A DNA stretch of 61,823 nt from a virus (taxonomy: Duplodnaviria; Caudoviricetes). The stretch is taken from the IMG/VR virus record IMGVR_UViG_3300022928_000025, positions 1 through 61,823 of that record. The stretch is one strand, 5' to 3'. Positions within the stretch are counted from its first letter, which is position 1; every line of letters starts with the position of its first letter. Position numbers and translations under genes: made by a program. Below are positions 102 through 59,170 of the stretch, piece by piece. Below the pieces are notes generated by a model. That model ran no database searches. It was not told the DNA's origin and saw nothing but the letters and a program-made list of their open reading frames with translations.

Positions 102-2899
102 CGTTTAACCCCTAACAAAGAAATAAACCAGTTACCACCAATAGCGCCCGAACCCGTGCTACTCGCGTAAATACGATAAGTAGTATTCCCAGTAGAGGGT
201 GTATGAACAAAGCCCGCACTCATACAGTCAGAGAAACCTTGACGGCTGGTCTGCCCAACTATACCTTCTTGAGCACCTGAAGATATTCTTAGTCCACGAG
301 TAACTTCGTTACTACCAGTTATTGTGGCAATAATGTTTAGCTGACCAAAAAATTGCACTTGAGATGGCAGGAGTGACGCGTTAGAACCCCAGTTAACTGT
401 GATAGATCCGATTTGGGTCCATGCCGATCCTATAGAAACACCGCTTCCAGCTGATATAGCGCGAGGGACAGTAACATTTTCGCCGGCGATCTTTAGAGTC
501 GTTACCGCCAAATTTTCGATTTTTGCGTTGGTGACAGCTTCGTTTTGTATCTTTGCCGTCTCTACAGCTAAGTCTCTTATCTTTGCTGTGTCTACAGCTA
601 AGTCTCTTATCTTTGCCGTGTTTACAGCTAAGTCTCCGATCTTAGCTTCGTCGACTGCGAGGTCACCAATTTTAAGATTTGTTATCTGACCATTTTTTAT
701 ATATGCGTCGGTTATGTAGACGCCAGGTAAAACAGTTTCGCCATTGATCGTCGTGGTAGTAGTTTGGACTGTGAACGGAACAAGTCCAGTGCCGTTGGGC
801 CCGACGATGGCAAAACGATCAGCCGCAACTAAAAACTGTGAAGTGTCCCCTCCAGCCACCGAACTCGTAGTGGCTAACCCGAAGCCTGCAACGTAGTTCG
901 TATTGCCCACAGTACCAATTTTAACAGTGTACTGCCCTTCCAAAGACTCCCCGTCTGCTTTGGCAAAGTAGTTCTGTTCGACCGCTGCCGAAGTCGGATA
1001 ACCGGCTAGCGTGCTAGTGGCGACGAGGGTAGAAGTAGCACTTGCTATGGCTTGGTCGGCTTGTGCAGACGTATAGTAATTATTAGTTAGCGTAGCGTTC
1101 GTCGCATAGTCAGCACCGGTTACAGTCGCGCTAAGTGTAGTAACGGCGCTTGATATCGCGCTGTCTGTTTGAGCCTGCGTATAGTAATTGGTAGTTAGCG
1201 TAGCGTTCGTCGCATAGTCAGCACCGGTTACAGTCGCACCAAGCGCGTTAACGGCGCTTGATATCGCGCTGTCTGTTTGAGCCTGCGTATAGTAATTGGT
1301 AGTTAGCGTAGCGTTCGTCGCATAGTCAGCACCAGTTACAGTCGCACCAAGCGCGTTAACGGCGCTTGCTATTGCACTATTTGCATCGGTCTTCGTATAG
1401 TAATTGGTGTTTAAGTCAGCAGTAGTTGTGTAATTACCTAATGCAGTAGTGGAGACTAAGTTTTGAGTCGCTGTAGATATAGCGCTGTCCGTGTCGGTAC
1501 GCGTGTAGTAATTGACAGTCAAGTTAGCAGTAGTTGTGTAATTACCTAACGTAGTAGTAGAGACTAAGTTTTGAGTCGCAGTAGAGATAGCACTGTCTGT
1601 GTCGGCACGCGTGTAATACGTCGAAGTTAGGTCGGCAGTGGTTGTGTAATTACCTAAAGATGCGATAGATGCAAGGCTCTGAGTCGCAGTAGAGATAGCA
1701 CTGTCCGCTTGGGCAGAAGTGTAATAATCGTTAGTCAGAGTTGCCCTTGTAGCTACTAACCCCGTAGTCGGGTTGTTAACAGTGGCCTCTAATACGTCTG
1801 AACGGCTAGACAATGCTGAATCAGCAGTGACCCGCGAAGTTTTTTCACTAAATACGAGCCCCGCCGATAACTGATTAACATCTGTGCCGTTGTAACCACC
1901 TCGCATCTGCGTGGCAAGAGTCTCTCTACTTGTAGCCTCTGCACTATCTGCGTCAGTTCGAGCAGTCGCTTCCTGCTGCAGAGCTGCTATAGATGCATAG
2001 TTTCCTGGCAAAGTTGTCGAAGTCAGGGTGGTTATCTGTTGTTCTACTGCTGCGTCACCATTACTACGCGCTAAAGCCTCATCAATTAACGCTTGCGCGC
2101 GCGTAGATGCCTCTGCACTAAGGGCAGTAGTTCTAGCGGATGCTTCTGCTTGAATAGCAGCAATACGCGCATTCGTTTCAGCTAATATGGCCGCATTACG
2201 AGCTGTCACTTCATCCGCAATTTCTTGGCCTATTCTCACATTGACAGAACCAGCGCCATTCCCATCAATTAAATTAATTCTAGAGGTAAGAGTGCTATAC
2301 AGCTGGCTTTCTGTAATCTCGCCAGTTAATAGCTCAAGCATAAATTCTACATCTACAGCGGTTTCTGCAAATGTACCAGCGCTTGAGTTCCACGGCCCTT
2401 TTTGATCGCGAGTATTTACATGCCGCACCCAATAATAATAAGACTGTGCTGACCCAACTTGGTCAGTAAAAACACTGCCGTGCTCAACCCCAACAAGAAT
2501 TGCATCCGCCAGTTGATCAACTGTATGGCGCCACACTTCTGTGTAAGCATGCGGCGAATATTGAAGATACGCTTGATCCCAATCAAGAATAATGATGCTG
2601 TAAGCGCCGGTCGCCTCAAACCCCGTAGGCGCCGTTGGTAAATCCGTCTCATTAACGTCTGTACCAATTGGCAGCAGACTAGACTGAGACTGCCCAAGAA
2701 TAAACGGCTTACCTTCGACAGCTAACCCGCTGTCAATTAACTCACGCGCAGTGATTGCTCTGTCCCTTGAGTCGCCTCGGCGCCCCAAACGAATTTCGAG
2801 AGCCTCTGCGACAGACTCTAAGTACCGCCTCATCGCGGGCGAAGCATCGGCGGGGAGCTTAGGGAATCCAGGAATTTTGGTTTCTTTAGGCGTCCTCAT
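98..2899 (-). CDS. Tail fibre / host-specificity protein (J-like), allele A
   Basis: 933 aa; FN3-like N-terminus (PTGF...YYWVRHVN), Thr/Ala-rich repeated shaft, DUF1983-like 'YTVKIG...VAGFGL...FLVAADRFAI' motif, TAKIxDLAV repeats; follows the nozzle gene. Confidence 0.8.
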   Translation of the reverse strand: MRTPKETKIPGFPKLPADASPAMRRYLESVAEALEIRLGRRGDSRDRAITARELIDSGLAVEGKPFILGQSQSSLLPIGTDVNETDLPTAPTGFEATGAYSIIILDWDQAYLQYSPHAYTEVWRHTVDQLADAILVGVEHGSVFTDQVGSAQSYYYWVRHVNTRDQKGPWNSSAGTFAETAVDVEFMLELLTGEITESQLYSTLTSRINLIDGNGAGSVNVRIGQEIADEVTARNAAILAETNARIAAIQAEASARTTALSAEASTRAQALIDEALARSNGDAAVEQQITTLTSTTLPGNYASIAALQQEATARTDADSAEATSRETLATQMRGGYNGTDVNQLSAGLVFSEKTSRVTADSALSSRSDVLEATVNNPTTGLVATRATLTNDYYTSAQADSAISTATQSLASIASLGNYTTTADLTSTYYTRADTDSAISTATQNLVSTTTLGNYTTTANLTVNYYTRTDTDSAISTATQNLVSTTALGNYTTTADLNTNYYTKTDANSAIASAVNALGATVTGADYATNATLTTNYYTQAQTDSAISSAVNALGATVTGADYATNATLTTNYYTQAQTDSAISSAVTTLSATVTGADYATNATLTNNYYTSAQADQAIASATSTLVATSTLAGYPTSAAVEQNYFAKADGESLEGQYTVKIGTVGNTNYVAGFGLATTSSVAGGDTSQFLVAADRFAIVGPNGTGLVPFTVQTTTTTINGETVLPGVYITDAYIKNGQITNLKIGDLAVDEAKIGDLAVNTAKIRDLAVDTAKIRDLAVETAKIQNEAVTNAKIENLAVTTLKIAGENVTVPRAISAGSGVSIGSAWTQIGSITVNWGSNASLLPSQVQFFGQLNIIATITGSNEVTRGLRISSGAQEGIVGQTSRQGFSDCMSAGFVHTPSTGNTTYRIYASSTGSGAIGGNWFISLLGVKR
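505..690. repeat. 30-bp tandem repeats encoding TAKIRDLAVx units
   Basis: tacagctaagtctcttatctttgc repeated with a 30-bp period. Confidence 0.85.
1085..1375. repeat. 108-bp (36-aa) tandem repeats in the fibre A shaft
   Basis: taacggcgcttgatatcgcg at 1141 and 1249; protein unit TTNYYTQAQTDSAISSAVNALGATVTGADYATNATL. Confidence 0.9.
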
Positions 2900-4617
2900 G
2901 CATTTATCTCCGCCATAGTAGACGCAAGCACTATCTCGTTAACTTGGTGTGTCGAGCTCACCTCTACTTCCCACTCGCATCCGTAGTTAGAAGGTAACCT
3001 CATGACAGGCGCGGTGAGGTTCCCGTTAGAGATACCAGCAGGGACAGTAGTCACCTGAGTGTAAACTCCGGCTGTCTCTTGCAGCTGATAATCAGCTATA
3101 AGGACTCCATCACCCCAGACTTTTACATCTATAGGATACTGGTCGCTGTGGACTTTTATGCAGCCCATACTTGTTGGTGTGCTCACAAACTTACGACTCT
3201 TCCAAGACGACGTGCGCTTAACACTTGACCCTCGAAACTCGACAATTTCATTATCAATAATGAGATAAAGCTTACCTGTCTTTTTCCGAGTGAAACCGCC
3301 ACGCACTTCATTACTCATCGTAAAAGTAGAGAAGGCATTCTGTGGTTGTCGAGGGTCAAATATCCATCCGCCGTCGTTAGCGCCGTCATTCCAGAACGCG
3401 ACGTACAGTCCTTCGTATAAGAAGGCTTTGTAGGTCGACGCGTAGAAGTCAGCCGCCCACTGTTTTGGCTCTATAAACTCAGAGGAGACAACCGACCCTG
3501 TGGTGTTGGACACTTGTACGAGCCCGTCAGGACCGGCATAGAGTACGTACTCTCCCATATCAACAATTGACTCTTTGTTGATGCATGACTGAGCAACGTC
3601 TACTTGTATAGCGGTCATGGCCGAGGGTTCAGTGCCAGTGACAAAATAAGGGTAGCCCTTGGTCATTACCACTAAGCCATTGTTAGTTGCTGACAGTCCC
3701 ACTATCTCTTCTTCTATCGTGAGTCGATACTGGATAGGCCAAGCATGGGGCAGGTACGGTTCAGACAAACATAGTCGAGCGCCGGCGAATCCGGCAAAGA
3801 CACCATTTCCAATAGGAAGCAGCCCCTGCAAGGGACCGTCGGGATAAAGAGATGTGTTGTCATCTGGCGGGCCAACCCAAGTCTCAGAAGGCAGTACTTC
3901 GCCTAAAGCCGCTGACGCTTTGTTATCGCTGTAACTAACAGTGGAGAATGGAACCTCTGCAACAAACTGAAAGTAAGTCGCTGTACTACCAACGTTAGCG
4001 CGATATATGCGTTTTAATCCGTTACTAAAATCATAAGCGCCTGACGGATCGTTTGCGCTCGGCATCGAGATAGAAACCGTTTCAGTTGAAGTCCACTCAA
4101 CAATTGCAGATGCGGGACTTGGAGGCCCCTCTTCTCCGAAACTCGTAACTAACGTATAGACGTAAGATAAGTCCTGTGCTTCTTCTGTGTCGCTGGCTGT
4201 GCCTGTCTTGGACAGCGTAGGTGCACTAGTAGGTGCAGGTACCCCTAACCTATAAGATGCCGCCGGAAATACCGAGCCACTTATCATGCTGGTATATGTG
4301 CCCACGCGCGGATAATCTTGCCCTGTCCAATAGGCTCTTTCGTAAGTGTCTTGTGCAATAGGTGACTGTACTACAGAGATATTGGCTTCGTTAAACTCAA
4401 ATACAGCCCCGCCATCTATGCCGATGCGCTCATAATAATAAAGAGATTGGCGCTGGCCATTTGACAGCGTAGCAACGGCCAGATCTTCCTCAATAGGCGA
4501 CAAGCGCCCAGTGGTAAAGGTCACATTCTCCGCTTTCTGGCCAAGTGTTTCGCCGAGAAGTCTGGCTGATTTCGCCGGTGCAATACCGGCAAAACTTTCG
4601 AGTCTGAATACGGCCAT
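2896..4617 (-). CDS. Tail nozzle / tail tubular protein B-like
   Basis: 573 aa beta-rich; 'FAGIAP', 'YVYTLVT..GEEGPPSPAS', 'SEPYLPHAWP' motifs typical of podovirus stabilisation/nozzle proteins. Confidence 0.7.
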   Translation of the reverse strand: MAVFRLESFAGIAPAKSARLLGETLGQKAENVTFTTGRLSPIEEDLAVATLSNGQRQSLYYYERIGIDGGAVFEFNEANISVVQSPIAQDTYERAYWTGQDYPRVGTYTSMISGSVFPAASYRLGVPAPTSAPTLSKTGTASDTEEAQDLSYVYTLVTSFGEEGPPSPASAIVEWTSTETVSISMPSANDPSGAYDFSNGLKRIYRANVGSTATYFQFVAEVPFSTVSYSDNKASAALGEVLPSETWVGPPDDNTSLYPDGPLQGLLPIGNGVFAGFAGARLCLSEPYLPHAWPIQYRLTIEEEIVGLSATNNGLVVMTKGYPYFVTGTEPSAMTAIQVDVAQSCINKESIVDMGEYVLYAGPDGLVQVSNTTGSVVSSEFIEPKQWAADFYASTYKAFLYEGLYVAFWNDGANDGGWIFDPRQPQNAFSTFTMSNEVRGGFTRKKTGKLYLIIDNEIVEFRGSSVKRTSSWKSRKFVSTPTSMGCIKVHSDQYPIDVKVWGDGVLIADYQLQETAGVYTQVTTVPAGISNGNLTAPVMRLPSNYGCEWEVEVSSTHQVNEIVLASTMAEINA

Positions 4618-16361: not shown

Positions 16362-19300
16362 CTAGAACTGGTTATAAATAGGAAGAACTCTTTCGTAGTC
16401 ACCTTGGATGAGTACTTGGTACAGCGTGTCAACGGTAGGGCCAAATACACTTACCGGCGGCTTCCCCCACTTGACATCCGTTTGGGCGCTAGTGAGAAGT
16501 GCCAAGGGTCCAAAGACTCCCGCGCTTCCATAAGCCGCTGCGAAATATTCGCCCCACTCCATATCGTCAGTTTTAAATATCGAAGCGTCTGCTTCGCGGA
16601 ACGGAAGTATCGCTTTCATTGCGTATTTGGTTTTCTCTTTTAACTCAAGAGAAAGCATCGCAAACGGAAGGACTGCTAAACCGAAAAGCGCCATGTGAGG
16701 AGCGAGATCTTGAGCAATTATCTGCCCGCCTGTTTTACCGGCTGCGCGCCCTTCTTGCTGCCGTGCTTTCATCTCACGCACTACACCACCTATGACAACT
16801 TGGCCGTAGGAGTAAGGGAAAGATTTTAACTGCCAGAGAAGCGCATAACGCGGGTCGGACGCCCACATGGGTCGCTCTGCTGCATTTGGGCGGAGCATGG
16901 TGGACTCGACGAACTTCTGAAGCCCCTGCTTAACTGCGAGTCCTGAAGGCGTACTAAACCCTTTGCCCTCAGATACCCACTGCTTAACCACGCCAGCCTC
17001 TAACCCAAGCTCATTTAAGTAACGACCCGAGCGGCTGTTGGGCGTAGTGGCATGCTTTATAATAAAGTTCTGCGCCATCTGCGCGGCGAAGACTCGTGTA
17101 AATTTAGTGAATAGGTTTAGTCCGGTATATTCAAAGAACTTGTTTGCCGCCGCTCTAGCTGTAGGAGTTAGATACTGCATATCCGACTCGCTCATAAATG
17201 CATTAGCAAGAGAGTCATTGCCTATGACACCTATGTCCCGCGCAAACTCCCACCGCTCTTTGGGATCTAAAATTGTGGCCGCGATTGTTTTGAAGCCTTC
17301 AAATACGCCCGAAAACTCTCGAGTGTTAATTACTGCTGCAGCCAGCTCGGGTATGGATGATATTGTAGCCAAACTAAGAACTGTAAAGATCTGAAGAGTC
17401 TGCGCCGCGCTCGATAACTTCTGCATGTCCTCACTTAACGGGGGATAAAAACCTAGTGCCGCGCCGAGTGCTTTCTTGGCTGTCGCTTGATCTTTTTCAG
17501 ATAGCTTAGCCAACTCTGCAGTTAGCGTATTTTCGCCGGACTTAGTGGCTCTGTTCCATTCGACGCGTTTTACAAGACGTCTCACGTAAGAAATTAATGC
17601 CACTTCCGCCGGCTTGGAATATTTATCGAGTAGCTCGCGACGAACCCCTTTGGTCAACTCAATAGATTCTTCTGCGGTATGTAAAGGGTCTAAGCCATCT
17701 ATCAGCGCCTCGGTTACATTTTCAGACGCAGTTCGTGCATTGTTTATGGTTGCAACAATAATTTCTTTAACTTGTGACGCTGTTATATCGCCGCGTTCAG
17801 TAGCGATAGTCTCAGAAAATCCGTCTAGATCTGCTGAGATAGCGTCGAAGTCTAGTAGCACTGTGTAGAAATCTTCTCGAAAACCAACTGATGTATTCTC
17901 TTCTTGGGATACATACTCGTCATAGAAGCGTTTAAGAAATCCACGAATTTGCTGCGCTTGTTCTGACAGTTCGCTTGTTGGTTTATCGGTCCTCGCCTCT
18001 TGCGCTGAATCCTTAAATTCTTGTGAAGTAAGATCGCCAAAAGTTTTTACTAATTGGCCTTCTATTTCATTTATCTTCAACGTAGATTTTTGAATGAAGC
18101 CAAGCCCTTTCTCACCGGAACGACCATAAATCATATTTGCTATTTTTACGCCTGCGCCGGTCTTAGCGCTGAGTCTCCTTACCACAGATTGCATGGGCGC
18201 AAAAATCTCCCACACTTTGTTAAGAATACTTTGCGTGTTTTTCTGAACCGCGGCGGTAGTGTTTTGATCAGATTTAGTAGGTAGTTTTGCCGCTCGATTA
18301 ACAGCATCGTTAATTGCAGCGAGCTTCATTTCCGACTTCATTGAAGATGGTTTAGCTTTAGTTTTTTGTTTAGGCGCAGGTTTCAAATCTGCATCTGCAG
18401 CAATTAACACTTCTCGGTTACCATTACTGTCCATTGGTGAAATAACACCAGCCGCTTCCATTTGGTCAAACAGCTCAACGGTTTTATTATACCCAATGCG
18501 TAATTCCCTCTGAACGGAGGAAATTGTAGCGTTTCGAGATTTTGCTACAGCAGCAACGGCTTGGTCGTAGATACTAGACCTGCTAATTTCTGATGTTATG
18601 TCAGTAAAACCAAATATTTTGGCCCGCATGAGTGCAGGGGTAGCAGAAGGATCGATAGCCCTACGTTGCCCCGCTGAAGGATCCTGCTTTCGTATTATTG
18701 ACTCCGCGATGAAGTCATCGACAGCTTGCGAATACTCTTGCCCGAAACGTTTTCTGCTGTTCGTGCTTAATGAGTTCCACAGGGATTTTAAGCGTTCCGC
18801 GACTCTCGCGAAGAATCTATGAACTACTCCTTGGGCTTTGATATTTTTCGTGGTCCACTTCGCTGTTTGGTCAGCCACCCACTCCTCAAAACCGTCCCTG
18901 CCTGGAGCGTCGTCGTAGAGCTCAGGGGACTTCGCCCGTGCCTTTTCAAAGTCCCGATAGAGACGGCCTCTAAGCTCAGGGTCTTGCAAAGCAGTTTGCA
19001 TCTCTTCAATGAACAGCGCATGGCCAATTTCATGTCCCGCTGTCAGCGTCAGCTCTAGCTCATTACCGCCGAGCACTTCATCGTTGAGAATAACAACATG
19101 CACCCCGTTGCCATCATTGCTGCGCAAGCGGTAATGTACACCGCCCGTTTTCCCATCGATGCTGTTTGCAATCTCTTGCAATGCCACACCGACATCTCTG
19201 TCGCTGGTCAAGTCGAAAATGCCATCGCCCAGCGCTTTGAGCCTACTGAGAGGCATTACAACTACCTTGCCTTTCAACCTCAGCTTCTTGAGTGCTTGGT

Positions 19301-22300
19301 TGATAGTGACCGACACCGCTTCAGGGATACCCCCCAAAGGATACTCTGCAAAAGTTCTCTCGGGATCATCAAGAACAGCGGTGGTTTGCTTAGCATCTAA
19401 GACAAACTGCGGGTTTCCTTTCGGGACCCCGCCAACACCTGTTGTCGCCCTCTTCTCACTATATCCCGTCTTTGGGGGCGGCTCTTCGTTGAGCAATCTA
19501 GTGTTGGCACTATCAAGGTTTACTGCCTCGGGACCACCATCAAAAACCCCGTCTTGTTTTTCAGTGAATCCAGTAAAAGCATCAGATAGACCTGTTGTTG
19601 GAATAGTATCTTCCGGCTTAGTATCTTCGTCTTGAATTAACCCAAATACCGCTTTTTCTCTGCGTCTGTCTTTAGCTCCTTCAGACGTAAACCCGCTGAA
19701 CGAATCATCTTGTGCTCCTAACATTATTTCTTCTGATCTAATGTTATCTTGTTTCGCCTTTTCTAACTGAGCGGCATAAGCATCACGCCTGGTAGAAGTT
19801 GCGTCGGGTTCTCTCGCATCAAATTCAGCAAGAGCCCTTTTAATGAGTCTGTCGTTGGCTTCTGCCACGTCCTTCAATCTTTTTACATTCTTTTTAGACA
19901 GTGGTTTTGTGGCTGTGTTTGGATTTCGGTTAAGTAGATCGTAAAGAGTGTCGCCTTTAGCATTAACCGTGACTAAGTTGTAACTCTGAGGTATACCACT
20001 TCTACCGTCCTCGAAAGCAAGACCAGTTCTCGGCGCTTTGACGTCACCTCGCAGCTCCCTGCCGGCAACTCTGAGTTCATAGCCTTGAACATTTAACTGA
20101 CCCATAATTGTACTCAGGCCACTGACGTCCGAATCAATTCCGTCAAAAGAGCCACCGAGTTCTGTCTCGTTGATCCTCTTCCCCGCCGCGATCATGTCTG
20201 CAATGTTAACGGTAAATTCTTCTGTAACTGTCCCGTCTTCGTCGACTGCTACCACTGACACGCCGGCGTCCTTGCTGAATTTACTCCGCCGTGACGCGCG
20301 CGCAATAGACTCCTGGATAAACTGCCCAAGTGGTAGACGACGTTGGTTGCCGCGTTTGTCTTGGATTGTATAAAGGTCACCGCCTAAGCTGGTCATCTCA
20401 ATACGGAAACGATTATCGTCCCCGAGCACTAGCTCAACTTGTGATTCAGGATTGACTGACTGGAGCTTGTTTACTTTTCTTAAAGTCGAATCGCTCGCCA
20501 ACCCAAGGGGGCTAGTTGACCAATTAACTGTCTTATTAAACGTATTCTCATATTCACGGCGGAGAGATTCCGTTTCGGGGAATATCTGATCCGCGCTTTG
20601 TTTAGGCTGATAGGTCTGCTGCTCTCTGCCATCTTCGGTGAGTTCTATCTGAATAGGCTCAGCTTCCGTAAGGCCCATGTCCTGCGCGGTCGCTTCAGGC
20701 TGCGACTGCTCGTTAGGGTCTACCGCTTCATCTGGATCAATCGTCATGTTGCGGCCTCTTTCAGCCGCGACTCGCTGCGCTCTTTGCTCTTGCGCTTGTG
20801 CTAGCGGAAGTTCCGCAATCTTGCCTTTCGAACCTGCTATATTCTGAGCAGCTACTCTGGCGGCGGGCAAACCTTCCTGCGTAGTAAGCTCTTCAGAAAT
20901 AACCTCGCCCTTCGCGTCGAGCACCTGCACAACAGTGGTCGCGTTCTCTGTCGGTGCTTTTGTCGCGCTGTAACCTAGCGCGGCGCCAACTGAGGAATCA
21001 GAACCGTTGTCGTTAACAACGCTGTTAACCACGTCGATGTCTTCAGAGAAAATCGTACCGCGCCCTTTTATGTTGGCAAAATAAACTTTCTTACCGTTTC
21101 TAGTGCTAGTGCCGCTTGAATTCTCTTCTATATCACCTAAGCCGTTATCTTTAGGTTCACCGGCAACCCACACCGCCTTCTTGCCGTAGCCTTCGTCCTG
21201 CATCGCGTCATACTGCGCGAAAATGTCGCCTTGAGATTCTTGTGTCGTATAGAAACCGCCAACATTGCCATACTGCTCTTGGTCAACTTCTGAGGAAACT
21301 TCTTGCGCGCGGCCTTTCCTAGACAGCTCTTTGGCTTTATCAAATACTCGCGATATCGCGTCTGGCGTTGTGGCCACAGCTGCACCGCCACCGCCCATAG
21401 CAGTACCGGCTATAGTGCCCATGAACCATGCCTGACCGAGTCTTAGATTTGCGTCGTCTTGGGTGTAGCTGTCATCCACAGCCATTCGCTGTGCAACCAG
21501 AAGACCTTCTTGGCCGAGCTCAGTTGCGCCCTCGGTTATAGAACTAAGGCCCGCATTCTTAGCAATGTTGGTGGCATACAGATTTAATATGCTCTTAGGA
21601 TCAGAACCTGCTTTGCGTTTCGCAAGCTTAGCGAGGTTGCTAAGGACAAGCGCTTCGCCGGTTACCTCGAGCGCCGTTGATGCACCGCCAAGTAACAAGG
21701 ACTGCAGGGCGCGGTCTGCGTTGAGATCTACGCCTGCCTCGTCAAATTCTTTAAAACTCTCGCCGGTGTTAATAGGATAAGTGCCAGCTACAACACCAGT
21801 TTGACCGCCGATCTTCGCCCCACGTTTTGTTTGGCTCCAAAGCCCTTCGACAATGTCGTTCTCGAGCGCATCGAGCGTTTCGCCACGGCCTTTTTTCTGG
21901 ACAATGTCAGTGACCAGCTTTTTCGTTATCGCTTCGACGCCTTCTGTCGCTGCTTTCCGAGCCGCGCCGTAAGCAAGGGGAGCTGCACCACCTGTAATAA
22001 AACCAGTAAGACCCGCAGCAATCGTTTCCGCCGCGAATGGGGTTACTTGCCCAAGGCCCATCTGAACTTGGTTCAAGAACCCAGAGAATGTTGGAGCATC
22101 AGTGAATTCTTGAAATGTTTCGAGTCCCGCTACAGCTTTCGACGCTTGATCGGATCGAATGCGCGCGGTCTCTATGTTTCTCTGAGCGCCCTCTTCGTCT
22201 CCGATGAGAGTGTTACCAAGCGCTTTAAAATATTCGATATCACCCGCAAACGCGTTAGCGCCTTGACGAATGCCCGCTTTGAACGGACTGTACGCGGTGC

Positions 22301-22430
22301 CAGCGGTATAAGTGGTATCAGGCGCGGGGGAGTCGGCAGTAATTATTTGATCAAGAAGCGCATTATTCTGCTCAACGAGCTTAGCGTCTTGTGCAATTAT
22401 ACTGTTTAAATATTCTGTTGCGCTCGGCAT
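16362..22430 (-). CDS. Large internal virion/ejection ('polyvalent') protein with HExxH motif and FtsK-gamma-like domain
   Basis: 2022 aa, last of a series of helical internal proteins; AGHEIGH...EEWVAD; YDQAV...ATISSVQRELRIGYNK...MEAAGVISPMDSNGNREVL. Confidence 0.8.
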   Translation of the reverse strand: MPSATEYLNSIIAQDAKLVEQNNALLDQIITADSPAPDTTYTAGTAYSPFKAGIRQGANAFAGDIEYFKALGNTLIGDEEGAQRNIETARIRSDQASKAVAGLETFQEFTDAPTFSGFLNQVQMGLGQVTPFAAETIAAGLTGFITGGAAPLAYGAARKAATEGVEAITKKLVTDIVQKKGRGETLDALENDIVEGLWSQTKRGAKIGGQTGVVAGTYPINTGESFKEFDEAGVDLNADRALQSLLLGGASTALEVTGEALVLSNLAKLAKRKAGSDPKSILNLYATNIAKNAGLSSITEGATELGQEGLLVAQRMAVDDSYTQDDANLRLGQAWFMGTIAGTAMGGGGAAVATTPDAISRVFDKAKELSRKGRAQEVSSEVDQEQYGNVGGFYTTQESQGDIFAQYDAMQDEGYGKKAVWVAGEPKDNGLGDIEENSSGTSTRNGKKVYFANIKGRGTIFSEDIDVVNSVVNDNGSDSSVGAALGYSATKAPTENATTVVQVLDAKGEVISEELTTQEGLPAARVAAQNIAGSKGKIAELPLAQAQEQRAQRVAAERGRNMTIDPDEAVDPNEQSQPEATAQDMGLTEAEPIQIELTEDGREQQTYQPKQSADQIFPETESLRREYENTFNKTVNWSTSPLGLASDSTLRKVNKLQSVNPESQVELVLGDDNRFRIEMTSLGGDLYTIQDKRGNQRRLPLGQFIQESIARASRRSKFSKDAGVSVVAVDEDGTVTEEFTVNIADMIAAGKRINETELGGSFDGIDSDVSGLSTIMGQLNVQGYELRVAGRELRGDVKAPRTGLAFEDGRSGIPQSYNLVTVNAKGDTLYDLLNRNPNTATKPLSKKNVKRLKDVAEANDRLIKRALAEFDAREPDATSTRRDAYAAQLEKAKQDNIRSEEIMLGAQDDSFSGFTSEGAKDRRREKAVFGLIQDEDTKPEDTIPTTGLSDAFTGFTEKQDGVFDGGPEAVNLDSANTRLLNEEPPPKTGYSEKRATTGVGGVPKGNPQFVLDAKQTTAVLDDPERTFAEYPLGGIPEAVSVTINQALKKLRLKGKVVVMPLSRLKALGDGIFDLTSDRDVGVALQEIANSIDGKTGGVHYRLRSNDGNGVHVVILNDEVLGGNELELTLTAGHEIGHALFIEEMQTALQDPELRGRLYRDFEKARAKSPELYDDAPGRDGFEEWVADQTAKWTTKNIKAQGVVHRFFARVAERLKSLWNSLSTNSRKRFGQEYSQAVDDFIAESIIRKQDPSAGQRRAIDPSATPALMRAKIFGFTDITSEISRSSIYDQAVAAVAKSRNATISSVQRELRIGYNKTVELFDQMEAAGVISPMDSNGNREVLIAADADLKPAPKQKTKAKPSSMKSEMKLAAINDAVNRAAKLPTKSDQNTTAAVQKNTQSILNKVWEIFAPMQSVVRRLSAKTGAGVKIANMIYGRSGEKGLGFIQKSTLKINEIEGQLVKTFGDLTSQEFKDSAQEARTDKPTSELSEQAQQIRGFLKRFYDEYVSQEENTSVGFREDFYTVLLDFDAISADLDGFSETIATERGDITASQVKEIIVATINNARTASENVTEALIDGLDPLHTAEESIELTKGVRRELLDKYSKPAEVALISYVRRLVKRVEWNRATKSGENTLTAELAKLSEKDQATAKKALGAALGFYPPLSEDMQKLSSAAQTLQIFTVLSLATISSIPELAAAVINTREFSGVFEGFKTIAATILDPKERWEFARDIGVIGNDSLANAFMSESDMQYLTPTARAAANKFFEYTGLNLFTKFTRVFAAQMAQNFIIKHATTPNSRSGRYLNELGLEAGVVKQWVSEGKGFSTPSGLAVKQGLQKFVESTMLRPNAAERPMWASDPRYALLWQLKSFPYSYGQVVIGGVVREMKARQQEGRAAGKTGGQIIAQDLAPHMALFGLAVLPFAMLSLELKEKTKYAMKAILPFREADASIFKTDDMEWGEYFAAAYGSAGVFGPLALLTSAQTDVKWGKPPVSVFGPTVDTLYQVLIQGDYERVLPIYNQF

Positions 22431-24646
22431 TACATTGCCACCGGCGAACGTTCTCGTGCTTTCGGAATTAGGGTTTTGTCTACGTATTCCCTACCAAACA
22501 AATTGTAGGCCACTATTAATGGAATTTCTCCCCTTGATATGCCGGCCTCGTCTCCGACATCGATAAACCCGAAGGTTTTCCCTTTTGGATCTACAACGAT
22601 GCGATCTAATAGGCTATCAATTGGATAGTCTACAGATGAATCCGACCGCACAAGATTTTGCCAAAACTCCTCGCTGAACATGCCAGGGTCTTTCTGTTCT
22701 GCATATTTCTTGAGTACAACGGCCGCAACCTCAGCAGCACCTCGGCCATAAGCGAATTTTGCAGGACCCTCTGGAAGGTCTTCGAAAGTACTAAATATAC
22801 GTCGTGCATCCGCTGTAATTGATACGTCGTTCCAGGGAACGGCGTCCTCCCCCTGCGCACCGGCTCTCACTGTTAGTGCATATACCTCGTCGTTCACTTT
22901 CTCAGTGATCTCTCTAAAATCTTTACTTTCAGCCGCTCTAGATTCATTTATTCTCTGGTTTAGAGTTGCCCGATTACCGAAATCGTCGATTTGCTCGCCC
23001 CGCCCATAATCCATGTCGCCGCGCTCTGCAAGATTAAACAGCTTTTGTAAAAGCGCTTGCTGTTGAGCAACGTTAAGAGATGCATCAGAAGTGGCTATTA
23101 TAGCTGCCGCAAGAGTTGCCTCCCGTGACCGTATATTTCCCAGATCTGAGGCCGTTGTAACGCCGGCATTCTTTAGTAATTGAGCCGTTTGATTGCGCTG
23201 ATCGTCTGTAAAAACTAAGTCTCCTTCTTTAATCTTCGCAATCATGTTCTCGCGAGTAAGCGTCATATCAGGTGGATCAATAGGGTTTTCTTCGGTGCCT
23301 AACTTGCTATCAGGCGTCACAGCTGATGGATTTAAGATTTCAAAATCCCTACGAGCATTCTTTAGATCACGTATGTCTTGTTGACCAGCGTGGCCACTTC
23401 TTACCGCCCTATTCTCAAGTTTCTCTATCTGAGTTTCTAAGCCGCTCGCGTAATCTTGTACTTTTTTTGCTGACGACATAGCCATTCGTGATCGATATTG
23501 ATCGGCTTCGTCCGTCATCGAATCGGGGTCATTCACATCAACGGCAGACGGAGAACGTCTCTGCTCAAAACCTTTTAGTAAACTCTTTAGCTTAGGGCTC
23601 GCGTTTTCAGGGATATTCATAGCACCAAAAGCGCCATCTTCAGATCGCTCGAAACTAAGACCCATAGCCTCTAGCGACGCTATCGCTTCCTCTCCTGATT
23701 CCGCAGCAGAAGGCAGGCGCGGGTTTCCAGAAGATTGTGATGTTGGGGATTGCTGAGTTGGTCTTGGGAACTGCGCTGCCACGTCCTCTGCAGACATACC
23801 GTGCACATCTATTATCATTTGAGCCAGCTCATCGTAGCTCGCATTATTTACATCAAGAAGGGCTCTTCTACCCGCGATAACGCCTCCAGTATCCCCAGCC
23901 TGACCCAACTGGCTTGTTTGGTCGCCGAGCCCCTGAGCGGCGAGTTTTACCATGTCGGCTCTAAGAACTGCGTCATTCATCATGGTGCCATATATCTGGG
24001 CTTGCGGTGATTCCCACCCCCCGTTAGACATCATGCCACCAAGACCATTTGCAAAGATTCGTCTCAACGTCGCGCCATCGAACTCTATGACGGGATCTGC
24101 ATCATCAGTTGTGCCCCCTTCTGTTAATGGCCCTTCTGTTTCGGCGTTTCCTACAATAACAGCATAGCGGTCATCACCAAGTTCTTCGATTTTCACTGTC
24201 TCGTATTCACCACCCGAGGGGGACCGTACTGCGGTGAACTGGGGAGACTGCTTCAGAACATTCACTACCGATTCTTTGTCGGTTGCCCACAGTTTTTCAA
24301 AAACGTCGTCGCTGACATTGAAGCCCCCATATTCATCGATGGTCAAACCTGGTCCAATGATCGGGATGATTGACGACGCTATTATCTTGTTTTCATATGC
24401 AATATTTAGAGCGTCTGCCGCACGGTCTTGATTGGCTTGCTGGGCGGTCTGATTTCTTACTGACTCTTCGGTTGCCAAGAGTTGTCTATTGCGGGCCTCA
24501 TTATTTTGTACGTCCTGAGTTTTTTGATAGGCGAGCTCAGCATCACGCTGCGCCAGAACGGAATCTCTGTACTCGTTATTTGCACGATCCTGTTTGCGTT
24601 GCCGCATCATGTTCAACATCGGCGAAAGGTCACCTAATCCAGCCAT
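22430..24646 (-). CDS. Internal virion/ejection protein
   Basis: 738 aa helical, Gln-rich N-terminus; position in a podovirus ejectosome cluster. Confidence 0.65.
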   Translation of the reverse strand: MAGLGDLSPMLNMMRQRKQDRANNEYRDSVLAQRDAELAYQKTQDVQNNEARNRQLLATEESVRNQTAQQANQDRAADALNIAYENKIIASSIIPIIGPGLTIDEYGGFNVSDDVFEKLWATDKESVVNVLKQSPQFTAVRSPSGGEYETVKIEELGDDRYAVIVGNAETEGPLTEGGTTDDADPVIEFDGATLRRIFANGLGGMMSNGGWESPQAQIYGTMMNDAVLRADMVKLAAQGLGDQTSQLGQAGDTGGVIAGRRALLDVNNASYDELAQMIIDVHGMSAEDVAAQFPRPTQQSPTSQSSGNPRLPSAAESGEEAIASLEAMGLSFERSEDGAFGAMNIPENASPKLKSLLKGFEQRRSPSAVDVNDPDSMTDEADQYRSRMAMSSAKKVQDYASGLETQIEKLENRAVRSGHAGQQDIRDLKNARRDFEILNPSAVTPDSKLGTEENPIDPPDMTLTRENMIAKIKEGDLVFTDDQRNQTAQLLKNAGVTTASDLGNIRSREATLAAAIIATSDASLNVAQQQALLQKLFNLAERGDMDYGRGEQIDDFGNRATLNQRINESRAAESKDFREITEKVNDEVYALTVRAGAQGEDAVPWNDVSITADARRIFSTFEDLPEGPAKFAYGRGAAEVAAVVLKKYAEQKDPGMFSEEFWQNLVRSDSSVDYPIDSLLDRIVVDPKGKTFGFIDVGDEAGISRGEIPLIVAYNLFGREYVDKTLIPKARERSPVAM

Positions 24647-24655
24647 TTCTTTCTC

Positions 24656-25249
24656 CTAGAACGACAACGCAAAAATGGCCATTGCGCCTAACTGGCCAAT
24701 GGTGCTGTATGTATTTGCTCTGCTCTGCGCTTTAGCTGCGTCAAATGCCTGCCTGCGCGAGTTAGCATCAGCTGCAGCAGAACCTAGCTGGCTCTGGCTT
24801 GAGCGGTTTACGCCTTGGCCAATGTTTATAAGATCGGCTTTTAAGTTAGTGTTAGCTTCGTTCTGCGCAATGCGAGCATCACCAACCGATTGGATCTGCC
24901 CAAGAATGCTGCCGCGCTGTATTGAACCTCGCATCGCCTGCACCTGAGCAGGAGTCATTTGACCGCCGTAACGCTGCTGGTTTCTTGACGCAATCTGCTT
25001 AGTAAGATCACTTGCCGACGTTGAATCTAGGCGTGCTTGGTCTACCAAAGAGGTGTCAGTCTGGGCGCGCTTGATAAGATCATTTTCCATACCGCGAAAA
25101 TTCTTAATGTAATCTTGGAACTCGCCGCGAGTGATTTGGGCATAGGCCGCTTCAGGATCTGCAACCACCGGAAGTGATGAGTTACCCTGCGAAGCGTTAG
25201 TTGGCAAATAGCCAAGGCCTTCCATGTCTTCATAGTTTCTATTGCTCAT
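24656..25249 (-). CDS. Internal virion/ejection protein
   Basis: Gln/Ala-rich helical protein with a hydrophobic C-terminus. Confidence 0.6.
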   Translation of the reverse strand: MSNRNYEDMEGLGYLPTNASQGNSSLPVVADPEAAYAQITRGEFQDYIKNFRGMENDLIKRAQTDTSLVDQARLDSTSASDLTKQIASRNQQRYGGQMTPAQVQAMRGSIQRGSILGQIQSVGDARIAQNEANTNLKADLINIGQGVNRSSQSQLGSAAADANSRRQAFDAAKAQSRANTYSTIGQLGAMAIFALSF

Positions 25250-43849: not shown

Positions 43850-45169
43850 ATGAAGCATGTAAGCTACACGACCTCGAAACAAACAGCCCGTAGTACACGC
43901 GTTTGGATAGAAGGCGAAGCCCTTACCCGATCAGGTTTTACAGTAGGCACCCCAATAGGCGTTGCCTTCAACAAAGAAAACAAAGAAGTTGTCATCTTTA
44001 AAGATGCTAACTCTACCCGCAAAGTCACCAACAGCAGTCGCAATGGTAAGTCACGCCCTATCATCGACTTGCACAACAAAGATATTCAAGACGTATTCCC
44101 CGCTGGAACTCGCGTTGTAGTCATGTATGCCGACGGCAACATACTCATGAAACACAACCACGAGGACCAAGCCAAAGACGAGCGAGAGAAGCGCTTGGCA
44201 CTTAACATCGAAACTAAAAAGTTGACCACAGCCTCGATGTTTACTGGTGGCGGCATCTCCCACGAGGCCATCCACCAAGCGGTGACCGACCAGGATATTA
44301 CGTGCAGCACAGCATGGATTGCCGAGGCCGAGGTTAAGTACAGCGAGTCAGCCCTTGGCAATTGCCTCTCGATCACTGACGACACGGTTATGTTATCCGG
44401 CACTGTCGAAGAGATAGAAGACATCTACTATAAAAAGGTAGATATCCTCAGCTTCTCCATGCCCTGCGCTGGCTTTAGCAAAGCAGGTAAGGTCAAGCAC
44501 AACCTCTCGTCAGAAGAACACAGCGGCACTGCCCTCTTCGGCGTCTATAACGCCCTTAAGATGGCTAACCCCGCCATAGTGATCAGCGAGAATGTAACCG
44601 AGGCCCAAGACTCTCCCATGTACACACTCCTCAGATGCGAATTACAGCGTCGGGGGTACAAAGTGTTCGAGCAAGTCCTGGATTCTTCCTACACCGATTC
44701 TTTAGAGAATAGAAAGCGGTACTGGCTTGTAGGTATATCAGAAGGTATTGCCCCTGAATCATTAGCCCTTGACCCTGTACAAGCGTCTAACCGCCTCTTA
44801 TCGAGTGTCTTGCAGCCCGTGCCTGAGCAGGAATGGAAAGATCATACTTACCTAAAAGACAAAGCCATCACTGACGCAGCTGCAGGCAAAGGCTTCGCTA
44901 AGCGTCAGTTACTTAATGGCTCTGAAACTCGAATAGGCACTATCGGTAGGTTCTATGCCAAGCGCCGAAGTACTGAGCCGTTCATGACCCGAGAGGATGG
45001 TAAAGAGAGATTATTGACTCCAATCGAGCACGCAGCGGTTAAGTCAGTGCCTGCTCACCTTATAGCAGGTAACAGCACGACAACTGCCCATGAAATTCTT
45101 GGTCAGTCAGTTGATTACTTGCAGCCCTACAAACTAATGCAATTAATATATTCATCTATTTATAAGTAA
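43850..45169 (+). CDS. C5 cytosine DNA methyltransferase with an N-terminal extension
   Basis: Motif I FTGGG, IV PCAGFS, VI ENV, VIII ENRKR, X GQSV. Confidence 0.85.
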   Translation: MKHVSYTTSKQTARSTRVWIEGEALTRSGFTVGTPIGVAFNKENKEVVIFKDANSTRKVTNSSRNGKSRPIIDLHNKDIQDVFPAGTRVVVMYADGNILMKHNHEDQAKDEREKRLALNIETKKLTTASMFTGGGISHEAIHQAVTDQDITCSTAWIAEAEVKYSESALGNCLSITDDTVMLSGTVEEIEDIYYKKVDILSFSMPCAGFSKAGKVKHNLSSEEHSGTALFGVYNALKMANPAIVISENVTEAQDSPMYTLLRCELQRRGYKVFEQVLDSSYTDSLENRKRYWLVGISEGIAPESLALDPVQASNRLLSSVLQPVPEQEWKDHTYLKDKAITDAAAGKGFAKRQLLNGSETRIGTIGRFYAKRRSTEPFMTREDGKERLLTPIEHAAVKSVPAHLIAGNSTTTAHEILGQSVDYLQPYKLMQLIYSSIYK

Positions 45170-56199: not shown

Positions 56200-56814
56200 A
56201 TGCAAACCGTACCGAAGCCAATAACGAACGATGTTAAGACTTCAAATCTCAAGAAAGTTTGGAACGAAAAGAAACGAATTCTTGATATCACTCAGCAGAC
56301 AGCTGCTCAACAACTAGGGATTACGCAAGGAGCATTTTCTCAGTATCTCAATGGCCATTGCCCACTTAATGAAAAGGCTACTATGAAAATAGCCAAATTC
56401 TTAGGTGTTCACCCTGAAGTCATTGATCCTAATTTCAGAGATAACGTTAATATTATAAAACGTCATCAATGGAAAGCGGTTGTTTCTCACACGTCATCAG
56501 ACGCTAATAAAGAACTAGGTGAACTGGTAGAAAGTAAGTTTGATGAGCAGCCTTTGTATATAAGAATAGATAAGGTTACGAAGATTTTTGATCCTAACGG
56601 TGAACTTATATCGATCCTACCGAAAGAAGCTTTATTAGCGCTTATAGACATCCGAAATCCGAAGTACCCCGTCAAAAGAAAATGCAAAGATAACATATAT
56701 GCAATTGTGAGTAAGAATAAAAAATCTTACTCTTTTATATGTGATTCAAGGCCACCCGCCTATGGAAACAATACAGTTACTATTTATCAAGTGGTAAATG
56801 TTGTTTATTTGTAA
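56200..56814 (+). CDS. CI/XRE-family HTH transcriptional regulator (putative repressor)
   Basis: 'LK.VW.EKK..L.ITQQ.AA..LGITQGAFSQYLNG..PLN' lambda CI-like N-domain. Confidence 0.85.
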   Translation: MQTVPKPITNDVKTSNLKKVWNEKKRILDITQQTAAQQLGITQGAFSQYLNGHCPLNEKATMKIAKFLGVHPEVIDPNFRDNVNIIKRHQWKAVVSHTSSDANKELGELVESKFDEQPLYIRIDKVTKIFDPNGELISILPKEALLALIDIRNPKYPVKRKCKDNIYAIVSKNKKSYSFICDSRPPAYGNNTVTIYQVVNVVYL

Positions 56815-56926: not shown

Positions 56927-57154
56927 TTGATGCTTTCTAAACTATTACTTCAGTGTCATGGCCCTTTAATGGACATGGACGACTTAGCAGGCGCGCTTAA
57001 AATAAAACGTGAGTCTCTCTACCAACGAATTTACTACGGGAAACTAGAGATTCCCCACATGAAGAACGGAAAGAAGTATCTATTCAAAACACAGGATGTC
57101 GCTGAATACATACAAAGTGAGTTTGAACGAGCTACTTCTTTAACTACCCATTGA
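56927..57154 (+). CDS. xis: Excisionase-like HTH protein
   Basis: 'LM..DDLA..L.I.RESLYQ.I..G.L..P..K.GKKYLF...DV'; convergent with the integrase. Confidence 0.7.
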   Translation: MMLSKLLLQCHGPLMDMDDLAGALKIKRESLYQRIYYGKLEIPHMKNGKKYLFKTQDVAEYIQSEFERATSLTTH

Positions 57155-58190
57155 GCTTATCTACTAAAGACGACGCATTTAGCTGTGTGTACCGCAGCAG
57201 CTGCTTCCAATCTTTATGTCCTGATATTCTCGCCACCTCTTGGATCTGAAGACCTTTTTCAAAGAACCGAGAGACAGCTTCGTGCCGAAGATCGTGGAAG
57301 TGAAGTTCTGGTAACCCAGCTTCTTCCCGTACCTTCACGAACCTATCACTAATTGATTGAGCTAACTTCACCCCTGGAAAGACAGCGCCTGTCCGTTTAC
57401 TTTCAACCGGCACCCAAGTCTTAAGAACCTCCAACGCCTTATTTGACACTGGTATGATCTGGTTATTACCCATCTTTTCACTTGGGTGCTTCCGGTCTTT
57501 AATAAAAATAGTGCTCTGTTTGAAGTCGACATCCTTCCACTGCAACGCTTGGATCTCTCCTTGCCGCATGCCAGTTTCAACTGCCAGCATAATGATTGGC
57601 CCTATCCATCCCGAGTGGTGCTTTAAGCTGGCCTCCATAAGCTGTTTCAGTTCCTGATCACTTACTCTACGCTCCCTCCTGCGACTACCACCCACCAAAC
57701 CTATCTTTGACAGCGCTGACAGCGCGTCTCTTGCTGGGTTAGATGGCAGGTCTACGCCCCACAAAGTCCTAGCGTGGTCTATGGTCTGGGCGACGTAAGT
57801 AAGCTGCTGGTTAAGAGTAGACCTGCTGATTGGCGCTCGGCCCTTGTACCCTGCCCTTCGCTTCTCGGCATATTTAAATAACATGTCGGGCGTAAGCTGA
57901 ATAACACGCACACCTTTAAAATGCTCGGCTGTCATTTTAATGGTGGTCATCTTGCTACGTGCAAAGGGTCGATGGGGGTGAACTTCGTCGATGTACCGAT
58001 GTAGCAGGTAGTCTAGCGTGTAGCCTTCGACTGCTTTAGATTTAGGCAGTGGTTCAGACTTAAGTTCTGCCTTTTTAAGGACAGCCCAATTCTCTGCAGC
58101 TGCTTTTGTGGGGAAGGTTTTATTATATCGCTTACGGTTATGAGAGATGACGCATAACCAGCTGTTACCCCGTCTTGTAATACTCGCCAT
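57144..58190 (-). CDS. int: Tyrosine integrase
   Basis: Catalytic R (TGMRQGE), K, HDLRH, ISGH, LRY. Confidence 0.93.
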   Translation of the reverse strand: MASITRRGNSWLCVISHNRKRYNKTFPTKAAAENWAVLKKAELKSEPLPKSKAVEGYTLDYLLHRYIDEVHPHRPFARSKMTTIKMTAEHFKGVRVIQLTPDMLFKYAEKRRAGYKGRAPISRSTLNQQLTYVAQTIDHARTLWGVDLPSNPARDALSALSKIGLVGGSRRRERRVSDQELKQLMEASLKHHSGWIGPIIMLAVETGMRQGEIQALQWKDVDFKQSTIFIKDRKHPSEKMGNNQIIPVSNKALEVLKTWVPVESKRTGAVFPGVKLAQSISDRFVKVREEAGLPELHFHDLRHEAVSRFFEKGLQIQEVARISGHKDWKQLLRYTQLNASSLVDKLNG

Positions 58191-58794: not shown

Positions 58795-59170
58795 TTATAA
58801 TTAGCCTTTTTGAGACATACATAGGATGTCTAAGCTCAAAGAAATAGTCCCCCCCTACATCAGCGCTGAACGAGAGCTCTCCATCATCTTCAGGTGTTAC
58901 TACTGCGTCGGGCCATCTCACCTTTGTTCCAGTGGGAATATTAGTAACACTTATTGTGCTGCCTAACGTGGCAGGAGAAACGTTAAGTTCTGGGAACTCG
59001 GTCTTATCTACTATCGCACCGCCGCTTATGTACTGTGTATCGTAATTTGCGAATACATCAGTGGCCATATACAACTGACCTTGGTCAATGTTCATTTCAA
59101 TTTCTTCTTCTGAACAAGAGATGGCTTTGACAAGAGTACCGTCGGTTTCATAGACAGCATAAATATTCAT
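58784..59170 (-). CDS. Fibre-associated hypothetical protein
   Basis: 128 aa; ATGA-coupled to the tail fibre. Confidence 0.65.
   Translation of the reverse strand: MNIYAVYETDGTLVKAISCSEEEIEMNIDQGQLYMATDVFANYDTQYISGGAIVDKTEFPELNVSPATLGSTISVTNIPTGTKVRWPDAVVTPEDDGELSFSADVGGDYFFELRHPMYVSKRLIINVA

Follow-up and report, generated by a model that had tools for sequence, protein, structure and literature searches.

A giant open reading frame (ORF) in a virus of the class Caudoviricetes carries, embedded within its coding sequence, a captured FtsK gamma domain, the winged helix that in FtsK reads FtsK orienting polar sequences (KOPS) and activates the recombinase XerD. The ORF (P0002; positions 16362-22430, minus strand) was found in the viral record IMGVR_UViG_3300022928_000025, whose 61,823 bp constitute the whole stretch of DNA analysed here and are referred to below as the window. 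It encodes a protein of 2022 amino acids (aa), lies in the virion gene module, and holds the gamma domain within a discrete cassette that near-identical relatives lack. The recognition helix of this domain was rewritten after capture, with the XerD-contacting surface kept. We read the gamma domain as an optional cargo that binds double-stranded DNA (dsDNA) on a carrier of the polyvalent type, one that would act in cis and without KOPS specificity, and we consider this proposal, taken as a whole, to have an even chance of being correct.

An FtsK gamma winged helix within a giant phage protein

The domain occupies residues 1285-1343 of the carrier (positions 18402-18578, minus strand) and matches the Pfam family FtsK_gamma (PF09397; curated cut-off 30.6) at 70.2 bits (E 1.2e-19). 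An earlier note on this DNA, made from the letters alone, had proposed an FtsK gamma-like winged helix at this location and quoted a 58-residue peptide without giving its strand. That peptide is the exact minus-strand translation of positions 18405-18578 (residues 1285-1342), the plus strand being full of stop codons there, and by itself it scores 75.2 bits against PF09397. A six-frame family scan of the entire record returned a single FtsK_gamma match, at 76.5 bits. Among proteins of solved structure, phmmer searches of the PDB recovered the gamma domain of Pseudomonas aeruginosa FtsK (2j5o/2ve8, E 2e-16) and that of Escherichia coli (2j5p, E 4e-15), with 52-54% identity to the solved FtsK gamma structures. 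The match is thus far beyond chance, and the domain is real.

Structure prediction bears out the proposed fold. An AlphaFold2 (AF2) model based on an alignment of 66 related gamma sequences (A3, 67 rows) reached a predicted local distance difference test (pLDDT) score of 80.8 and displays three helices and a wing. Foldseek returned 13 matches to this model at E ≤ 0.001, all of them FtsK gamma chains (including 2ve8, 2ve9 and 2j5p), which superpose with a root-mean-square deviation (rmsd) of 0.6-1.4 Å and a target-normalized template modelling score of 0.76-0.91. A model predicted from the single sequence was discarded, as it was not compact (pLDDT 60.9) and gave an rmsd of 11.8 Å against 2ve8 at E 6e-3. 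No match to the FtsK/SpoIIIE motor (PF01580) was found on the 2022-aa protein at E ≤ 1, and the carrier, judged from its sequence, is not an FtsK.

A captured cassette with a patchy distribution

Protein alignment, blastn offsets and a DNA alignment (A1) delimit an inserted cassette of 258 nt, or 86 codons (residues T1279-M1364; positions 18339-18596, minus strand), which comprises the gamma domain and a Lys-rich tail, KPAPKQKTKAK (residues 1350-1360; positions 18351-18383, minus strand), of low pLDDT. In two related loci, L005 and L007, the insertion is 273 nt long. The insertion point is in the linker that joins a conserved HExxH...E domain to the hydrophobic C-terminal domain of the carrier, and two copies of a diverged 27-nt direct repeat bound the cassette. 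The left copy (TSEISRSSI; positions 18570-18596, minus strand) and the right copy (KSEMKLAAI; positions 18312-18338, minus strand) correspond to a segment that is single (KSEMRMSAI) in relatives without the insert, and the cassette entered the linker with duplication of this target segment. The low-complexity linkers that the earlier note had described on either side of the domain were recovered in part: the C-terminal flank is rich in Lys, Pro and Ala (5 Lys in 11 residues) and pLDDT is low on both sides, but the flank on the N-terminal side is short and is in fact one of the two copies of the duplicated target segment.

The discrete insert is missing from close and distant homologues alike, and for this reason the gamma domain was captured by the phage gene, as had been supposed; we regard this account of the cassette's anatomy and capture as close to certain. 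Among 46 metagenome homologues of the 2022-aa protein (1718-3274 aa), PF09397 was detected only in P0003, P0004 and P0006. The cassette is absent from L006, L008, P0005 and P0007-P0020, as well as from all 20 of 20 more distant homologues, and two of five related viral records carry the gamma domain while three carry none. In an alignment of 21 homologues (A4), the segment at the insertion site measures 99 aa here, 46 aa in P0026 and 8-13 aa in the other homologues (19 of 20). Wherever the cassette was seen (the window, L005, L007, P0004, P0006 and P0003, the last a cluster with 21 members), it is intact and in frame.

Comparison of the flanking sequences points to recent movement. L005, which has the cassette, and L006, which does not, are 98.8% and 98.1% identical over the flanking 1.1-1.3 kb. 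The gamma core differs little among the window, L005 and L007 (98.3-98.9% identity), whose flanks are mostly 88-91% identical, with the window and L005 reaching 96% downstream. In trees of the flanks built from 12 rows (P0002-P0013, with P0014-P0020 left out), the four carriers never form one group; the upstream tree forces 3 changes, and none of 200 bootstrap trees needs only 1. Because near-identical relatives lack the cassette and its carriers are scattered on the flank trees, it has by all appearances been shuffled recently among close relatives, and it is very probably accessory and dispensable.

The recognition helix has been rewritten

The region of the recognition helix, GYNKTVELFDQME (residues 1320-1332, equivalent to E. 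coli G1294-E1306; positions 18435-18473, minus strand), departs from the family at a few concentrated positions. In the alignment with E. coli (2j5p), VQRELRIGYNKTVELFDQME in the window stands against VQRQFRIGYNRAARIIEQME, and the helix differences in E. coli numbering are R1297K, A1298T, A1299V, R1300E and E1303D. Four consecutive residues that read RAAR in E. coli and RSAR in the nearest relatives are KTVE here. The RAA-to-KTV change reported in the earlier note is real, but that description understates it, since the fourth residue to differ is the KOPS-reading Arg.

According to PMC2533119 and PMC2680272, KOPS reading in E. coli requires N1296, R1300 and E1303, with E1306 forming part of a fully blind triple mutant; the latter source reports that R1300A and E1303A abolish KOPS reading and leave XerCD-dif recombination intact. 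The corresponding residues of the cassette are N, E, D and E, such that R1300 is not kept and its charge is reversed. This position is Arg in 119 of 119 nearest FtsK-type gamma domains. Across the 193 domains found in the 150 nearest representative proteins, it is Arg in 154 and Glu in only 1, and Thr at the A1298 position and Phe at the I1302 position likewise occur once each. The Asp at the E1303 position, by comparison, is shared by the window gamma and its nearest cellular counterparts. Relative to the nearest cellular gamma, the domain has 16 differences, five of them clustered in six residues of the helix (RSAR.L to KTVE.F); concentrated in this way, they show that the helix was rewritten (RSAR to KTVE) after capture. 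Canonical KOPS reading by the cassette gamma is very unlikely, given that the equivalent of the KOPS-reading R1300 is Glu. The motif GGGNAGGG occurs 4 times in the genome, against 3.64 expected, and without polarity; the KOPS-directed functions suggested in the earlier note are not supported.

The second known activity of gamma domains concerns XerD, whose contacts in the 5DCF structure are Q1288, R1289, R1292, I1293, G1294 and N1296 (Table 1 of PMC5052618). All six are identical between the window and E. coli. In the same 193 gamma domains, these positions carry the E. coli residue in 182 (Q), 177 (R), 127 (R), 154 (I), 185 (G) and 130 (N) cases, and since they are near-invariant, their retention discriminates little. 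PMC5052618 also places the XerD-contact residues on the DNA-binding surface and treats the R1297 mutant as a wild-type-like control. The genome contains no match to an E. coli-type dif 25-mer when up to 3 mismatches are allowed, and the XerD arm, allowing up to 1 mismatch, matched once where 1.48 matches were expected, although the dif of the host may differ from the E. coli type used in both searches.

Origin and wider use of gamma domains

In word-based searches, the nearest cellular gamma domains share 71% identity with that of the cassette (40 of 56 residues) and are C-terminal domains of FtsK proteins. Those with names are mostly from Betaproteobacteria (Hydromonas, Ephemeroptericola, Caballeronia, Thauera, Rhodocyclaceae, Casimicrobiaceae and metagenome-assembled genomes of Burkholderiales), with Microbulbifer and Competibacteraceae as non-betaproteobacterial members of the same set. 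A family scan of genome contigs for a donor yielded 3 loci, the best being Chitinimonas taiwanensis at 64%. No near-identical donor was thus found in the genome contigs or the word-based searches, where 71% was the best value. The cassette comes ultimately from an FtsK, the nearest known being mostly betaproteobacterial. The G+C content is 41.6% in the cassette, 49.0% in the gene and 46.9% in the window, and the first of these values is lower than expected for a recent transfer from a typical high-GC member of the Burkholderiales. No prophage copy of the C-terminal 612 aa of the carrier was found in three sets of genomes (0 of 1; 0 of 401 from the order of G001; 0 of 401 from the class of G001).

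Beyond FtsK itself, the gamma domain is a module in wide re-use. A search of representative proteins returned 5255 gamma matches at E ≤ 0.001; among the best 150 of these, 82 are at most 200 aa long, 44 measure 201-600 aa and 24 exceed 600 aa. A Pfam scan of ten mid-length gamma proteins (211-479 aa) revealed tandem gamma domains in five, one of which also has an H-NS C-terminal domain (P0052) and another a weak zinc ribbon. The other five comprise two fusions to RdgC (P0093 and P0149), one to PDZ, one to a weak LolA match and one protein that is an FtsK/SpoIIIE motor fragment. In several Vibrio phage records (within H23-H34), gamma-only matches fall in genes annotated 'exonuclease recombination-associated'.

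The carrier as a probable ejected scaffold

The homologues of the 2022-aa protein, aligned as sets of 47 (A2) and 21 (A4) sequences, show conservation of the N-terminal region and of an HExxH motif, strong conservation of the C-terminal third, and a centre that varies. The carrier resembles phrog_30152, 'virion structural protein', over residues 1426-1888 (E 5.6e-27). Two hydrophobic segments lie toward the C terminus, at residues 1679-1701 (positions 17328-17396, minus strand; maximum 1.66 in a 19-residue Kyte-Doolittle window) and at residues 1912-1930 (positions 16641-16697, minus strand; maximum 1.70). No described phage is a near relative: when the giant gene was compared by megablast with 50,697 phage records, no match was found; tblastn of its product matched 58 phage records, none with a coverage of at least 80%. 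In Kochitakasuvirus phages (KPP25 and phiR18) and in Aeromonas phage phiA008, tblastn recovered only the C-terminal quarter, with an identity of about 26%. The homologue of about 2000 aa in Kochitakasuvirus phages is annotated 'structural protein'.

The HExxH motif (H1133, E1134 and H1137; positions 19020-19034, minus strand) marks a putative zincin-like domain. H1133 is invariant in both alignments, and E1134 and H1137 are conserved in at least 90% of sequences. A downstream glutamate, E1183 (positions 18882-18884, minus strand), is also invariant in both and, by analogy with the zincin architecture described in PMC5512222, is a candidate third zinc ligand. In relatives, sub-threshold matches to Peptidase_M78, M48 and M13 (E 0.017-0.084) fall exactly at the HExxH motif. 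The ESM-Atlas language-model neighbours of this region carry LPD23, LPD1, ART-PolyVal and MuF_C, which we treat as leads only; no Pfam peptidase family, MPTase-PolyVal included, and no LPD family was significant on the 2022-aa protein. The same region contains an indel of about 10 residues, L005 (545-1267) and L006 (3274-3996) aligning over 241 columns against 231 residues in the window; it marks an L005/L006 sub-lineage and is another sign of mosaicism in the giant gene.

The homologue P0034 (2581 aa) provides a view of what other members of this family hold. It has an N-terminal Phage_lysozyme domain (22.9 bits against a cut-off of 22.3) and, in its variable centre, an AlkB-like 2OG-FeII_Oxy_2 domain at 43 bits together with a sub-threshold NADAR match, these domains spanning residues 13-137, 1169-1303 and 1335-1434. 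The match to NADAR in P0045 is weaker than that in P0034. No lysozyme domain was detected by Pfam in the 2022-aa protein. The domains of P0034 suggest cargo for DNA repair or for countering ADP-ribosylation on the same scaffold. The carrier could thus be pictured as a large scaffold whose accessory domains differ by lineage, with the gamma cassette as one optional cargo. Given its position in the virion module, its size, its two C-terminal hydrophobic segments, its virion-structural-like homologues and the lysozyme domain of P0034, we judge it somewhat more likely than not that the carrier is packaged in the virion and ejected, which is the function that the earlier note had assigned to it.

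Proposed role and competing explanations

We propose that, with canonical KOPS no longer read once the helix had been rewritten, the winged helix and the basic tail would anchor the ejected protein to DNA, either that of the incoming phage or that of the host nearby. Such a tether would act during entry and just after it, with non-KOPS or relaxed specificity and at low copy. A tether is favoured because gamma domains are re-used overwhelmingly in DNA-binding contexts and because the cassette itself includes a basic tail. Internal virion proteins are present in few copies per particle. Since the carrier is presumably of low copy number, and since an isolated gamma domain is sufficient for XerCD-dif activation but only at high concentration (PMC3130261), a role in cis is favoured over one in trans. 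A dsDNA tether acting in cis is nevertheless a tentative assignment, which we place slightly short of an even chance.

Several observations weigh against this proposal. No Pfam MPTase family matches the 2022-aa protein, the zincin assignment resting on the motif and the sub-threshold matches, and the virion labels of the distant homologues are annotations only. The accessible parts of the A1002 cryo-electron microscopy paper and of the CRPAP1904 paper offer no proteomic data on the giant homologue. A profile of 21 homologues searched against the PDB gave nothing below E 0.27 and matched no solved ejection protein. No 7- to 9-mer is notably over-represented in the genome (maximum z 3.6), such that no candidate target motif emerged. 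The cassette copies differ by 2-3 nt in 174 nt and are too alike for a selection test. Finally, the reversal from Arg to Glu, along with the replacement of two Ala by the larger Thr and Val, might impair DNA binding as a whole, which would favour a protein-binding role or no role.

A protein-binding role is most readily envisioned through XerD. The gamma domain might be delivered at entry as a KOPS-blind activator that binds host XerD by way of the conserved alpha2-alpha3 surface, either eliciting FtsK-independent XerCD recombination at dif or blocking XerD, with disturbed dimer resolution or division, or the mobilization of dif-integrated elements, as possible outcomes. The identity of the six XerD contacts with E. 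coli is in keeping with this idea, as are the tolerance of E. coli for changes at R1297, R1300 and E1303 in Xer activation (PMC2680272 and PMC5052618), the sufficiency of the isolated domain for XerCD-dif activation and the temperate nature of the phage. Retention of the contact residues is, however, not specific, as they are near-invariant in gamma domains and contact DNA as well; the isolated domain required high concentrations (PMC3130261); near-identical phages exist without the cassette; and the genome has no E. coli-type dif, with the proviso noted above about the host's own site. We therefore consider this explanation unlikely, and rather more doubtful still its stronger form, in which an injected activator would uncouple XerCD-dif recombination from FtsK and division within the first minutes of infection. 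If this were true, segregation or division could be stalled and elements at dif dislodged or captured, and the phage would provide the first example of a virion-delivered manipulator of the host machinery for chromosome dimer resolution.

Alternatively, the cassette might be a neutral passenger, a recent in-frame insert in a tolerant linker that lacks any function and has spread by recombination or hitch-hiking. Its patchiness in close relatives, its absence from all distant ones and the mutation of its most conserved DNA-reading residues would agree with such an origin, and the near-identity of the copies means that purifying selection is not demonstrable. Simple decay, however, predicts scattered changes, whereas those in the helix are concentrated; the residues that determine the fold and form the surface are kept and yield a confident model, and no carrier was seen in which the cassette is interrupted or out of frame. 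A passenger is accordingly improbable, somewhat more so than an activator of XerD.

The remaining explanations fare considerably worse than the proposed tether. A KOPS decoy or orienting device would bind GGGNAGGG on host or phage DNA and so orient entry or disturb FtsK loading, and membership in the FtsK gamma family, the retained equivalents of N1296 and E1306, and the occurrence of Asp at the E1303 position in the nearest cellular gammas as well might be cited in its favour; the Glu at the R1300 position with R1297K, A1298T and A1299V alongside, the background frequency and lack of polarity of the motif, and the unmatched translocase motor make it highly improbable. Least probable of all is a cofactor of the phage's own tyrosine integrase, conceived by analogy with XerD activation: the one protein partner known for gamma belongs to the tyrosine recombinases, of which the phage encodes one, but the gamma-less relative G800 (85% complete) also encodes an integrase, that of the window is only remotely Xer-like (best PDB match E 1e-6), and a predicted complex of the gamma domain with the window integrase (score 0.00, mark 0.32), made without controls, speaks neither for nor against binding.

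Genomic context

The record appears complete, with a CheckV estimate of 100%, and no tRNA genes were found in its 61,823 bp. The minus strand encodes the large terminase, portal, major head protein and two structural proteins around the giant gene. These structural genes are followed by four ORFs that belong to no known family (149, 205, 197 and 738 aa), then by the 2022-aa ORF, and past it a lysozyme-like protein followed by several tail-fibre-like proteins. The 738-aa ORF (positions 22430-24646, minus strand), directly upstream of the giant ORF, is a candidate second internal protein and had no match in the PDB or in phage records; the 197-aa ORF (positions 24656-25249, minus strand) lies upstream of it in turn. 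The same pairing is seen in Aeromonas phage phiA008, with ORFs of 681 and 2050 aa. Far from the giant ORF, a 573-aa protein (positions 2896-4617, minus strand) matches phrog_511, 'internal virion protein', at E 5.9e-132 and is another candidate for a second internal protein.

The plus strand encodes a DNA methyltransferase, a family-A DNA polymerase, a primase, an exonuclease and a helicase. The methyltransferase (positions 43850-45169, plus strand; phrog_116, E 3.6e-21) lies in this early or replication module and is possibly an anti-restriction function. The phage is temperate because it encodes a tyrosine integrase (positions 57144-58190, minus strand), which matches PF00589 at 108.1 bits and phrog_1 at E 2.5e-53. 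This lifestyle is found although the phage has its own family-A DNA polymerase, primase and helicase. Adjoining the integrase gene is one for a 204-aa protein (positions 56200-56814, plus strand) with weak HTH_3/MqsA-like matches, a possible repressor. Two large tail-fibre-like ORFs, at positions 98-2899 and 59167-61821 (both minus strand), share the N-terminal families phrog_496, 19394 and 37064, and since one of them reaches the very end of the window, the record was probably cut or permuted inside the tail-fibre region.

Comparison with known systems

Two elements of the present findings are already known. Gamma domains borne by phages are described in PMC8190038, where Bacillus phages Sam46 and Sam112 have them as separate ORFs or fused to the small terminase (TerS) and their role is called unknown, and the FtsK winged helix-turn-helix is listed as a rare part of polyvalent proteins, with a predicted function in dsDNA binding, in PMC5512222 (Iyer et al. 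2017). In the literature on FtsK gamma domains in phage virion proteins and on polyvalent proteins, the supplements of PMC5512222 aside, we found neither a presence/absence polymorphism nor a rewritten helix described. As far as these searches show, three things are new: the presence or absence of the cassette between genes that are nearly the same, a helix rewritten at concentrated positions alongside an XerD surface that is kept, and the carrier family itself, although that family may already figure in the supplementary architecture lists of PMC5512222. Phage-borne gamma domains are very common, and small proteins other than FtsK predominate among the nearest. The present case, in which near-isogenic phage genes exist with and without the 86-residue cassette, constitutes a natural experiment. 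It also documents the recent gain and loss of a domain in a giant virion protein, in support of the view of such proteins as carriers of exchangeable cargo.

A precedent for an activity on XerD encoded by a phage is XafT of the TLC-phi satellite phage, which activates XerD independently of FtsK (PMC6744903 and PMC9226527). The element that encodes XafT integrates at dif, in contrast to the window genome, where the E. coli-type search found no dif-like site. XafT is not known to be a homologue of FtsK gamma.

The C-terminal hydrophobic segments of the carrier and the lysozyme domain of its homologue P0034 may recall podophage ejection proteins, such as those of T7 and P22 (gp7, gp20 and gp16). 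The run of ORFs of 197, 738 and 2022 aa that follows the head genes is similar in order, and roughly in size, to T7 gp14, gp15 and gp16. The carrier has no detectable sequence similarity to any solved ejection protein, and its role here is proposed from context.

In architecture, the carrier parallels the polyvalent proteins of PMC5512222, giant products of genes in the virion region that combine a zincin-like peptidase core with variable conflict domains and are predicted to be injected. The carrier likewise is a giant multidomain protein with an HExxH...E hub, is encoded in the late virion gene region of a phage with terminase and portal, and belongs to a lineage-variable family, as is apparent from the combination of gamma, HExxH...E and the conserved C-terminal domain here and from the different cargo of P0034. 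It differs in having no significant MPTase-PolyVal or LPD match, LPD23, LPD1 and ART-PolyVal being seen solely as language-model neighbours. Sam46 and Sam112 share with the window the capture of a host gamma domain in a structural or packaging context; their DNA-binding residues are reported as conserved in PMC8190038 and their fusion partner is TerS, whereas the gamma domain described here has an altered helix and is joined to a giant protein of the internal type.

With the gamma domain of FtsK itself (PF09397; 2VE8/2VE9, 2J5P and 5DCF), the cassette shares the fold, clear homology and the XerD contacts. In FtsK, this domain lies at the C terminus of an FtsK/SpoIIIE motor and its helix reads RAAR or RSAR; in the phage, it is embedded in a virion-module protein together with a Lys-rich tail, and its helix reads KTVE, with Glu in place of the KOPS-reading Arg. 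The combination of a rewritten DNA-reading helix and an intact XerD surface would thus set apart, within one natural protein, the two known activities of the gamma domain.

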